Part shown: piece by piece, positions 36,387-39,640 of the stretch
Layout: the number at the start of each line of letters is the position of its first letter
How positions within the stretch are numbered: the first letter of the stretch is position 1
The notes under the pieces: model-generated
The model's input: only the letters and a program-made list of their open reading frames with translations
Told to the model about the DNA's origin: nothing
Database searches by the model: none
Source of the DNA: an uncultured Candidatus Micrarchaeota archaeon
Lineage (GTDB): Archaea; Micrarchaeota; Micrarchaeia; Burarchaeales; Fermentimicrarchaeaceae
NCBI GenBank assembly: GCA_963760615.1
Contig: CAVXDX010000004.1
Location: forward strand, 64,001-128,000
Direction: 5' to 3'
DNA: 64,000 nucleotides
Position numbers and translations under genes: made by a program

Positions 36387-37598
36387 ATGAACATTAAATT
36401 TAGTGAGCCTATTTCAAAGGCACTTGCAGAACTAGGCTTCAAAGAACTGACTGAAGTGCAGAAGCAGGCAATACCCTACATATTGCAGGGGGAGGATTTG
36501 ATAGCGCAGGCAAGGACAGGCACCGGCAAGACTGCAGCATTTGCAATTCCTCTTCTTGAGATAATACCTGATAAGCCCTACGTTCAGGCAATTGTGCTAG
36601 CCCCTACAAGAGAACTGGCAATACAGGTTGGGAACGACTTCAAGAAGATAGGCAAGTACTCAAAGGCGCGCGTGCTCGTAGCCTACGGAGGGGTGGGTCT
36701 AGAGCCGCAGATTGAGAAGCTGAGGGCAGGAGTGCAAATTGTCGTCGGCACACCTGGCAGAATTCTTGATTTGATATCCCGTAGGGCGCTGAATCTTTCA
36801 AGAATAGAGTTCTTCGTCATTGATGAGGCAGATGTGATGCTCGCAATGGGTTTCATAAGGGATGTTGAGAGGATACTTATGGAAGTTCCGCAGAAAAGGC
36901 AGATGCTGCTCTTTTGCGTTGACTTCCCTGAGGAGATACTGACGCTTGCCAAGAAGCACATGCGCTACCCTCAGCATGTGAAGCTCATCTCATCAGAGAA
37001 GAGCGCTCAGGGAGTCAAGCAGGTATTCTACATGGTCGAGTCAGGTAGGAAGTTGGGCGCCCTGCTGTTCCTGCTGAGGCAGATAAAGCCGCAGAGGACG
37101 CTCATATTTTGCAGAACGAAGAGAAAGGTTGATGAGCTCACCCGCATACTGAATTACAATGGAATAAAAGCAATGGGCATACAGGGTGACTTGAGTCAGC
37201 CCCAGAGAACTAGGACGATGGATGCATTCAAGGAGGGCTCGATAAGCCTGCTTGTTGCCACCGATGTTGCTTCGAGGGGCATTCAGGTTGAGAAGATTTC
37301 CCATGTGTTCAACTACGAGCTTCCCTATGACATAAACTATTATTTGCACCGCATAGGCAGGACTGGAAGGATGAGTGATGTTGGAGAGGCAATTACGCTC
37401 TGTTATTCCGATGAAATGGGCACTCTTGGGCAAATTGAGAGGCTCATCGGCACAACGCTGGAGGAGAAATTCTTACCCAACAATACGCCTGCCCCTAGGA
37501 TGCCTCCCTATCAAAGCTACCAAGGGCGAGACAGAAACCGTCCCTACGGTCAGAGTAGCTTCGGAGACAGGCGCAGGCCACCGCGTTTCCGCAGGTAA
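36387..37598 (+). CDS. DEAD-box RNA helicase
   Basis: Q motif, AxTGTGKT, PTRELA, TPGR, DEAD, HRIGRTGR; the SAT motif reads CVD. Confidence 0.95.
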   Translation: MNIKFSEPISKALAELGFKELTEVQKQAIPYILQGEDLIAQARTGTGKTAAFAIPLLEIIPDKPYVQAIVLAPTRELAIQVGNDFKKIGKYSKARVLVAYGGVGLEPQIEKLRAGVQIVVGTPGRILDLISRRALNLSRIEFFVIDEADVMLAMGFIRDVERILMEVPQKRQMLLFCVDFPEEILTLAKKHMRYPQHVKLISSEKSAQGVKQVFYMVESGRKLGALLFLLRQIKPQRTLIFCRTKRKVDELTRILNYNGIKAMGIQGDLSQPQRTRTMDAFKEGSISLLVATDVASRGIQVEKISHVFNYELPYDINYYLHRIGRTGRMSDVGEAITLCYSDEMGTLGQIERLIGTTLEEKFLPNNTPAPRMPPYQSYQGRDRNRPYGQSSFGDRRRPPRFRR

Positions 37599-37647: not shown

Positions 37648-37875
37648 TTAAGATTTCTTTGATTTTTTGTATTCTTTAGTAGGCTCTACGGCCTTCAGGA
37701 CAAACCAAGTCCCCAAGGTTACCCCAAGAAACTTCCATGTTTGATTTAGATTTTCAATAAATTTCCAACCGGAGTAATAAGAAATTACCAATGCCAGTGC
37801 AACTGCGGTAATCTCTTTCCAGTAGTTTTTCACTCTAAAATATTCTATCGCAACAGTCATGTATAAACTATCCAT
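37648..37875 (-). CDS. Small two-TM hypothetical protein
   Basis: 75 aa, two hydrophobic segments, Lys-rich tail. Confidence 0.5.
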   Translation of the reverse strand: MDSLYMTVAIEYFRVKNYWKEITAVALALVISYYSGWKFIENLNQTWKFLGVTLGTWFVLKAVEPTKEYKKSKKS

Positions 37876-38088: not shown

Positions 38089-38484
38089 TTACTCCTTTAT
38101 CTCAAAAATGCTGCGCAAATTCTCCTGTAGGTGTTTGATATTAGGCGGATATGTTAGGCTTGAAAGAGTGTCATCCGCAGTTTTCTTGATATCCTCAGGC
38201 AAATTCAGAGCTAGGGGGTTAAGCGCTATAAATGTTGAAAGCCTAATGGCACCCAGATGAACCAGTGACTCCTGTACTCTCTCTTCCTTGGTTGTTGCTC
38301 CAACAGCCTTGCCCATTTTCCTTATTGCGTCTTTCATCCCATGTTCAGACGACTTAAGTTCTATAAGCTCTTTCTCAACTTCCTCCATCAGAAATTTAGA
38401 TTGCGTATGAAGTGTTACGTCGTCTTGTTTACCCAAGTCGTTTATTGCGTTTATTCTATCGCTTTTTGTAGTGATTAAAGACAT
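38089..38484 (-). CDS. Hypothetical protein
   Basis: 131-aa helical ORF; no recognised motif. Confidence 0.6.
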   Translation of the reverse strand: MSLITTKSDRINAINDLGKQDDVTLHTQSKFLMEEVEKELIELKSSEHGMKDAIRKMGKAVGATTKEERVQESLVHLGAIRLSTFIALNPLALNLPEDIKKTADDTLSSLTYPPNIKHLQENLRSIFEIKE

Positions 38485-38558: not shown

Positions 38559-38861
38559 TTACTTCTTCACTGGGAGCGGCTTTGCATGCGACGCCAGCAG
38601 CTTTATTGCCTGCTCTATGGCATTCCTCACTTCCCTCTCGCTCTTTGAGCCGGTGCATATTATCTTGCCGTTCTTGAAGAGCAGCAACGAGGCTCTGGGT
38701 TCTTTGAGCTTCAGGATGGCTCCTGGGAACTGCTCTGGCTCATACTCCACATTTCGGACTTTCTGCGCAATTGTGTAAAGGTCAAGCTCCACTCCCAGAT
38801 TTGCAGATGCAACGATGTTCTCTATCTTGAACTTTGGCTCAATTTTGAGTTTTTTAGCCAC
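38559..38861 (-). CDS. Single-repeat TATA-binding-protein domain (half TBP)
   Basis: KIENIVASANL...VEYEPEQFPG.....EPRASLLLFKNGKIICTGSKS is one TBP repeat; 100 aa; GTG start with GGTGG upstream. Confidence 0.88.
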   Translation of the reverse strand: MAKKLKIEPKFKIENIVASANLGVELDLYTIAQKVRNVEYEPEQFPGAILKLKEPRASLLLFKNGKIICTGSKSEREVRNAIEQAIKLLASHAKPLPVKK

Positions 38862-38878
38862 GGATGACCACCACTTTA

Positions 38879-38900
38879 TTTATAAACGTAGGTATTTAAA
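38879..38900. promoter_or_regulatory. Back-to-back TATA-like boxes of a divergent promoter region
   Basis: Palindromic TTTATAAA at 38879-38886 and TTTAAA at 38895-38900. Confidence 0.5.
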
Positions 38901-39018: not shown

Positions 39019-39297
39019 ATGAGAAGGTCGTTGGGAAAGTTCTCAAAGAGGACTAGGTGCCTTAGGAAAAGGGCGGGGCAGAAAAGCGTCCCCATGAGGA
39101 GGCTTTTGGGCAGCTTCAGCATTGGAGACAAGGTTTGCATAAACCTGGCTCCTTCCCAGCAGGGTTTGCCTCACCCGCGCTACAGGGGAAGGCACGGAGT
39201 AATTGTTGCGATGAGAGGCAAGTCATATGTTGTCGATGTCAAGAGTGGCAACTCGTACAAGAGGATAATACTGCCGGGGATGCATCTGAAGAAGTGA
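39019..39297 (+). CDS. rpl21e: 50S ribosomal protein L21e
   Basis: RTR..LRK, FSIGDKVCI, GLPHPRYRGRHGVI, PGMHL. Start moved to ATG 39019. Confidence 0.95.
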   Translation: MRRSLGKFSKRTRCLRKRAGQKSVPMRRLLGSFSIGDKVCINLAPSQQGLPHPRYRGRHGVIVAMRGKSYVVDVKSGNSYKRIILPGMHLKK

Positions 39298-39301
39298 TGT
39301 T

Positions 39302-39640
39302 ATGATTGAGAAGGACGTTGTATCGAACAGGCCTGCAACGCTTGCCGAGGTAAAGGAAGTGCTTGAGGAGAGGAAGAAAGAAGGTGAATTGGGCTTCGAG
39401 CAGCAGACAACACTTGCCTATGCAACTAAATATGCGAAGCTGAGCAAGAAGAAAGCAGCCGAGCTGATTGAGGAGCTCCAGAAAATCAACAAGGTGAAGC
39501 CCACAGTTGCTGCCAAGATAGCAGACATACTCCCGAAGAACTCGGACCAGATTAGGCTGATATTCGCAAACGAGAGGTATTCGCTGAGTGCGGAAGAGAT
39601 TAAGGAAGTGCTTAAAATTGTCGAGAAATACTCCAAATAG
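39302..39640 (+). CDS. rpo4: RNA polymerase subunit F (Rpo4)
   Basis: TLAEVKEVL, EQQTTLAYA..YAKL, KIADILP...QIRLIF. Confidence 0.92.
   Translation: MIEKDVVSNRPATLAEVKEVLEERKKEGELGFEQQTTLAYATKYAKLSKKKAAELIEELQKINKVKPTVAAKIADILPKNSDQIRLIFANERYSLSAEEIKEVLKIVEKYSK

Follow-up and report, generated by a model that had tools for sequence, protein, structure and literature searches.

The DNA window analysed here, a stretch of 64,000 nucleotides from an uncultured archaeon of the Candidatus Micrarchaeota, carries a gene for a TATA-binding protein (TBP) that encodes a single repeat. We consider it likely that this single-lobe protein is the general TBP of the organism and that it acts as a symmetric homodimer. 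The gene is strongly conserved and stands where relatives keep a two-lobed tbp, and thus the core promoter-recognition factor of this archaeon is probably a pair of half-size subunits. Dimerisation is what structure prediction suggests; that the protein binds DNA and TFB and acts in transcription initiation is likewise something that we infer. In addition, it possibly forms a heterodimer with a paralogue encoded elsewhere in the same genome.

A single TBP repeat at the tbp locus

The gene is intact and encodes one TBP repeat only (Table 1). The Pfam family PF00352 matches the 100-aa protein once, over residues 10-91 (profile positions 1-84 of 85; 5.8e-31, 106.6 bits, with a gathering cut-off of 22.9), and beyond this repeat the Pfam scan of the protein returned nothing else of note. 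Both phenylalanine motifs are present, as E43-Q44-F45 and L60-L61-F62. The GTG start is backed by the orthologue L010, which has ATG at the equivalent codon, and by the Shine-Dalgarno-like GGTGG, whose position matches the peak zone of such words in this genome. These results bear out most of a preliminary description made from the sequence alone, which had seen exactly one TBP repeat with both Phe positions retained, start signals of its own and a clean stop. That description had assigned the span 38559-38900 to the gene; the coordinate 38559 is right, while the open reading frame, which is on the minus strand, reaches up to 38861 and the remainder is upstream promoter region.

Table 1. Features in and around the single-repeat TBP gene (positions in the window; distances from the GTG start codon)
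Feature	Position	Strand	Remarks
DEAD-box helicase	36387-37598		on the other side of the TBP gene from rpl21e
75-aa ORF	37648-37875	minus	downstream of the TBP gene; no family match
131-aa ORF	38089-38484	minus	next minus-strand ORF downstream of the TBP gene; no family match
Single-repeat TBP gene	38559-38861	minus	100 aa; GTG start; TAA stop at 38559-38561; ORF and translation
GGTGG, Shine-Dalgarno-like	38868-38872	minus	-11 to -7; kept in 7 genus and family orthologues
Palindromic TTTATAAA	38879-38886	strand-symmetric	-25 to -18, 17 nt before the start codon
Second TATA-like box TTTAAATA	38893-38900	minus	-39 to -32; 14 nt upstream of TTTATAAA; conserved in orthologues; candidate promoter TATA
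rpl21e (ribosomal protein L21e)	39019-39297	plus	divergent neighbour; marker of the conserved tbp locus
rpoF (RNA polymerase subunit Rpo4/F)	39302-39640	plus	downstream of rpl21e

No second half follows the gene, as the preliminary description had also stated: the next ORF, of 131 aa, has no similarity to TBP, and an unfiltered search with a profile hidden Markov model (HMM) found none. We considered this ORF and the 75-aa ORF beyond it as a hidden second half and rejected both, as neither resembles TBP and the longer one is restricted to close relatives, with matches in the closest of them only (L004, 1e-9).

On its other flank, the gene lies divergent to rpl21e and rpoF, beyond which follow a DUF655-like gene and ksgA. 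At most of the loci that we fetched across the class, the TBP gene is likewise divergent to an rpl21e homologue with rpoF behind it, and this is true of one-repeat and two-repeat genes. This common position makes the window gene the positional orthologue of canonical tbp. Those close homologues of the protein that carry an organism name belong to Candidatus Micrarchaeota, in the DPANN group.

Could the gene be a truncated pseudogene or an artefact of assembly? It has half the normal length, and matches to the ten NCBIfam TBP models (PRK00394) span only half of the model length and stay below every curated cut-off, the best reaching 100.8 bits where 270 are needed; these low scores also fit the name "hypothetical protein" found among its homologues. 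However, the length, start and stop of the gene are identical in six other genomes, five of the same genus and one of the same family, which excludes mis-assembly, and homologues of 93-131 aa number in the hundreds. The dN/dS values are 0.014-0.05 against the five genus orthologues and the family orthologue (dS 0.29-2.05) and 0.08-0.13 against the paralogue described below, low values that rule out a decaying truncation. We therefore regard a pseudogene or an artefact as refuted, its probability being practically nil. The assembly break or lineage-unique truncation that the preliminary description had named as a possible refutation is thereby set aside, and the survey of homologues and dN/dS that it had proposed revealed conserved single-repeat genes and no relaxed selection.

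The residues that matter to a TBP are conserved as well. A TBP lobe contacts DNA through Asn and Val of strand S1, through two Phe that intercalate or kink, and through a Leu, an Ile or Val and a Thr of its concave face. Among 83 aligned single-repeat homologues (93-131 aa), the residues N15, V17, F45, L60, F62, I68 and T70, which from TBP-TATA crystal structures we take to be the DNA-contact positions, are invariant or present in 81-82 of the 83. The stirrup Y-E-P-E-Q-F-P-G is similarly invariant or found in 82/83 proteins, with E41 in 83/83 and E43 in 82/83. Our choice of DNA-contacting lobe positions was drawn partly from Ravarani et al. 2020 (PMC7221094), where the two stirrup glutamates (L3.2, L3.4) are signature positions that touch an Arg and a Thr of TFB/TFIIB.

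The predicted dimer and its promoter

The AlphaFold2 model of the monomer has a pLDDT of 87.5, and in it the protein adopts the predicted TBP-lobe fold (S1-H1-S2-S3-S4-S5-H2). When this model was searched against the PDB, the top 44 matches were all TBPs, each covered over half of its length. Normalised by the query, TM-scores were 0.72-0.81; normalisation by the target gave about 0.42, so the model covers one lobe. The best matches had an rmsd of 0.7-0.9 Å over 74-79 columns. The protein shares 42-45% identity with either lobe of solved archaeal TBPs, and it scores almost alike against the two, with 77.2 and 71.4 bits for the two lobes of the Methanocaldococcus jannaschii protein (2Z8U) and 73.6 and 70.7 bits for those of the Sulfolobus acidocaldarius protein.

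A lobe of this kind does not have to work as part of a saddle. The single TBP-like lobe of RNase HIII binds duplex nucleic acid on its own (PMC7221094), and the window protein has a weak match to that N-terminal domain (PF11858, DUF3378; E 0.19), so one could imagine a monomeric nucleic-acid-binding protein that acts outside initiation, in a lineage that initiates without TBP. We judge this very improbable. The match reaches 12.4 bits where the cut-off is 27, and the window protein has no further domain. Moreover, the TFB-contact glutamates and all the TATA-contact positions are kept as in true TBPs, the identity to solved archaeal TBP lobes is as high as given above, and the genome encodes a canonical TFB, which needs a TBP as its partner.

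The homodimer, which the preliminary description had put forward as a symmetric TBP, is the best-supported mode of action. Its predicted ipSAE was 0.62, with 0.01 for the best of three controls; among proteins whose solved structure is a pair of one chain, 20/30 reach the mark for a homodimer, and among those solved as single chains 1/23 does. Separate runs agreed in at least 87% of the contacts, with a pLDDT of at least 84 for the partner. In the predicted interface, residues 9-24 run antiparallel to themselves (16 with 16, 18 with 12), joined by residues 68-69 and by helix residues 75-95. This interface is the contact that joins both lobes of canonical TBP at its pseudo-dyad. Since it is the intrachain lobe-lobe contact of solved TBPs, the model rebuilds the saddle, and for the same reason its pass may reflect the memory that the prediction model has of solved TBPs. 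The prediction is thus support for dimerisation and not proof of it.

In the mechanism that we propose, an ordinary tbp gene would have been reduced to one lobe. Two copies of its 100-aa product would pair through S1 against S1 and through their C-terminal helices, and this pairing would rebuild the ten-stranded saddle that canonical TBP forms from two repeats in one chain. On the TATA box, which such a dimer would bind and bend, both chains would use the same seven contact residues (Asn15, Val17, Phe45, Leu60, Phe62, Ile68 and Thr70), and each would present the same stirrup (Glu41, Glu43); either stirrup could take TFB. The direction of the promoter would be set by TFB and not by TBP. In archaea it is TFB, reading the BRE, that gives promoters their direction, and archaeal TBPs are already nearly symmetric; a homodimer would thus be mechanistically unproblematic in these organisms. 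The paralogue could form a homodimer of its own or a mixed dimer, so that several dimer species are conceivable. With two paralogues present, either type of dimer may be the working one in this organism, and a partner that has a TBP-like fold without detectable sequence similarity is possible too.

The promoter of the gene itself has an uncommon layout. The palindrome TTTATAAA, to which the preliminary description had drawn attention as a candidate autoregulatory site, is indeed there: it is kept at equal distance in the genus and family orthologues, and it is rare in the window, with three copies where 0.75 are expected. The second TATA-like box, TTTAAATA, lies farther from the gene. Across the genome, many ATG starts are preceded by a TATA-like 8-mer with a sharp onset at -30, a sign of leaderless mRNAs, and before other genes Shine-Dalgarno-like words peak at -12 to -9, so both types of start appear to coexist. 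Under this 30-nt rule, TTTAAATA predicts a transcription start near -9, while TTTATAAA predicts one inside the coding region. Two TATA-like boxes spaced 10-20 nt apart occur upstream of only 2/865 other genes, which makes the arrangement unusual. Either box may be the promoter TATA, and TTTATAAA may be a promoter-proximal element, a second, possibly repressive TBP site that would allow autoregulation, or simply an AT-rich leader.

Lobe number in the genome and across the class

The genome from which the window comes (G000) was assembled to 1.14 Mb in 16 contigs and is 91% complete. PF00352 matches two of its genes, even with E values up to 10: the window gene and a paralogue of 104 aa on contig C8. 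An unfiltered search of all 13,324 open frames of at least 40 aa with an HMM of the lobes of this clade found the same two genes only, the next match having an E value of 1.8. No two-repeat TBP was found in this 91% complete assembly, and because of that figure its absence rests partly on the relatives. The preliminary description had advised looking for a canonical tbp in the genome; the search brought up no two-repeat gene, but it did bring up the C8 gene, which is of the same half-size kind and is not the missing half. The two proteins differ at 18/96 compared positions (about 80% identity). The genome carries one canonical TFB gene.

Single-repeat genes prevail in the relatives. Within the order of the window, a match was found in 27/28 relatives; the frames that contain it measure 100-145 aa throughout (one is cut by the end of its contig), and among the searched relatives of this order there were neither adjacent repeats nor a two-repeat TBP. 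We extended the survey to 301 genomes of the class that are at least 85% complete, ten of them examined more closely and a second order sampled. About 83 genomes in this survey have exactly one repeat match (hand count), and 40/41 genomes of the second order (at least 90% complete) have single-repeat genes only. The tallies for the class and the second order include two unpublished genomes (G087 and G252), and leaving out both shifts the counts by at most two. By family, three states can be told apart. One or more single-repeat genes are found in f1-f10, f12, f14, f15, f17, f18, f21, f23 and f25-f29, and a normal two-repeat gene of 188-220 aa in f11, f16, f19, f20, f22, f24 and f30-f32. The third state is that of f13. 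Its genomes have two single-repeat genes, neither more nor fewer, which are diverged and lie far apart; this was so in 20/20 of those sampled, G060 and G090 with their single contigs among them.

The f13 pairs deserve a closer description. They are L019/L025 in G060, L053/L052 in G032 and L016/L021 in G090, with loci hundreds of kb apart; for G060 and for G032, the rpl21e locus is home to one gene of the pair. The tree joins both copies to the single-repeat genes of f17 (SH-aLRT 98), which gives them the look of a duplicated half-gene, and the f13 half-genes possibly work as an obligate heterodimer.

A comparable proposal for the genome of the window would make its gene and the C8 paralogue the two halves of a split TBP, neither of them working alone. 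There are indeed two paralogues, f13 shows that two-gene systems exist in the class, and in the predicted interface the two proteins differ at 4/29 positions (K/S, R/K, I/L and A/T), all conservatively, which makes mixed dimers plausible. Nevertheless, an obligate heterodimer is unlikely. Many relatives have a single gene, including the family members G006 (98% complete, 6 contigs) and G008 (100% complete) and the single-contig assemblies G102 and G111 of the second order, with exactly one single-repeat gene each, and within the genus the copy number ranges from 1 to 3. Moreover, the C8 copy sits away from the rpl21e-rpoF tbp locus, and the lobe tree places it within the genus clade and not with the N or the C lobe. 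The homodimer therefore remains our preferred reading, with mixed dimers as a possible addition.

The survey also returned several unusual forms. One f17 genome, assembled in 110 contigs and with four matches in all, has a 191-aa two-repeat frame (G081:C77:2653-3174) beside its single-repeat genes; a mixed state may explain this, or contamination. Some relatives have additional low-scoring PF00352 matches of 19-42 bits, in frames about 100-114 aa long (G011:C12:19300-19539, G010:C12:16301-16498, G018:C28:8329-8526 and G035:C9:21028-21222), which may be diverged TBP-domain proteins; the unfiltered clade HMM found no counterpart of them in G000. Some single-repeat TBPs (P0065, P0085, P0110 and P0236) are extended at the N terminus by 40-70 residues with much Lys, Ala and Pro, an extension that recalls basic DNA-binding tails. 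Three chains of the representative library (P0121, 376 aa; P0122, 272 aa; P0126, 702 aa) each contain three or four TBP repeats, which may have come about by tandem fusion or by the merging of separate gene calls.

How did lobe number come to vary in this way? A tree of lobes, built on only 86 columns and with most of its forks unresolved, has a well-supported branch (SH-aLRT 95) that sets other archaea, with their N and C lobes, apart from all lobes of the Micrarchaeia, be they single, N or C, and from those of the nearest two-repeat TBPs of DPANN. Within one protein, the median identity of N to C lobe is 60% for this clade, compared with 41% elsewhere, and the lobe from the window is equally distant from N and C lobes (median identity 42% and 41%). 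The two lobes of a gene differ at synonymous sites by 0.32 (f11, L054), 0.40 (f20, L028), 0.47 (f22, L017) and 0.48 (f16, L055), whereas the same lobe differs between families by 0.60-0.86, above every within-gene value, a gap to which the codon usage shared within one genome may contribute. Such closeness within genes of f11, f16, f20 and f22 implies that their lobes have exchanged sequence or arose from one another recently. Enforcing N/C orthology with other archaea made the tree 32.4 log-likelihood units worse and was not rejected by the AU test (p = 0.11), and for this reason we make no claim of re-duplication from the tree alone.

The idea of an ancestral homodimeric TBP, with one lobe before duplication and fusion, has been discussed before (PMC3597702, PMC7221094, PMC12917281). 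The preliminary description had likened the window protein to this ancestor, and the likeness holds for the architecture, with one lobe per chain and a predicted symmetric dimer. It does not extend to the history of the protein: the lineage is nested among two-repeat archaea, so that the single-lobe state is probably secondary, and the window protein already has the TFB-binding stirrup.

It is tempting to speculate, although we hold this only tentatively, that lobe number is in flux in the Micrarchaeia. A homodimeric one-lobe TBP would then serve whole orders as their general factor, f13 would have re-created asymmetry by means of two separate half-genes, and the two-lobe TBPs of sister families would be recent re-duplications of one lobe or would owe the likeness of their lobes to gene conversion. 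The within-gene differences of the two lobes, when set against those between families, argue for this flux. With lobes so alike in their DNA, the loss of a repeat and its re-duplication would both be easy, and this could explain the patchy distribution.

Known TBPs and the meaning of a one-lobe factor

To our knowledge, every characterised TBP that serves as a general transcription factor, in archaea or in eukaryotes, has two lobes in one chain, and the origin of TBP from a one-lobe homodimer is a textbook idea for which no working example has been seen. The canonical archaeal TBP has about 180 aa and two PF00352 repeats, as in the solved proteins of M. jannaschii (2Z8U), S. acidocaldarius (1MP9) and Pyrococcus woesei (1PCZ/1AIS/1D3U). 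The window protein shares with it the fold of the lobe and the residues that contact DNA and TFB, and its gene has the same chromosomal position as the canonical tbp of related families. In contrast to the two lobes per chain of canonical TBP, it has one, close to neither the N nor the C lobe in particular. With one lobe per polypeptide, a saddle needs two chains, and its symmetry would be exact and not approximate.

Stand-alone single TBP domains have been described in other archaea. Halobacterial TbpA and other monopartite TBP-domain proteins share this layout (Brindefalk et al. 2013, PMC3597702), and TbpA falls among true TBP lobes, as the window protein does. These proteins coexist with full-length TBPs; TbpA was reported to be non-essential, and the monopartite group of the Thermococcales is strongly diverged from TBP (PMC3597702). 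Monopartite archaeal TBP-domain proteins are also mentioned by Ravarani et al. 2020 (PMC7221094), and both papers, the ones that we found on single-lobe archaeal versions, treat them as accessory. In the literature on single-lobe, homodimeric or monopartite TBPs, including those of DPANN and Micrarchaeota, we found no paper in which a single lobe is the sole TBP.

Similarly, the window gene might encode an accessory half-TBP which, like TbpA, caps or poisons a two-repeat TBP hidden in the unassembled 9% of the genome. The incompleteness of the assembly and the known single-lobe proteins beside full TBPs in Halobacteria and Thermococcales (PMC3597702) speak for such a competitor, which the preliminary description had also considered. 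We find it extremely unlikely, and our results go against that suggestion. No two-repeat TBP was found in G000 or in the searched genomes of its order, nor in nearly all of those of the second order, single-contig assemblies included. In addition, the window gene occupies the tbp locus itself, and purifying selection on it is as strong as for a core factor. Its product also lacks the strong divergence of the Thermococcales group, as its PF00352 score and its identity to TBP lobes attest.

Genes of this kind score below the NCBI cut-offs for TBP and often go by the name of hypothetical protein, so that a survey of genomes may record TBP as absent when it is there. If the Micrarchaeota do include a lineage in which a single lobe is the only TBP, the homodimer origin of TBP would become directly testable. 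Several questions could then be put to it: does a perfectly symmetric TBP bind and bend a TATA box, does it take one TFB or two, how is direction set, and what does asymmetry provide? Finally, if lobe number is in flux in this class as we speculate, the Micrarchaeia would offer a natural replay of the primordial duplication of TBP.
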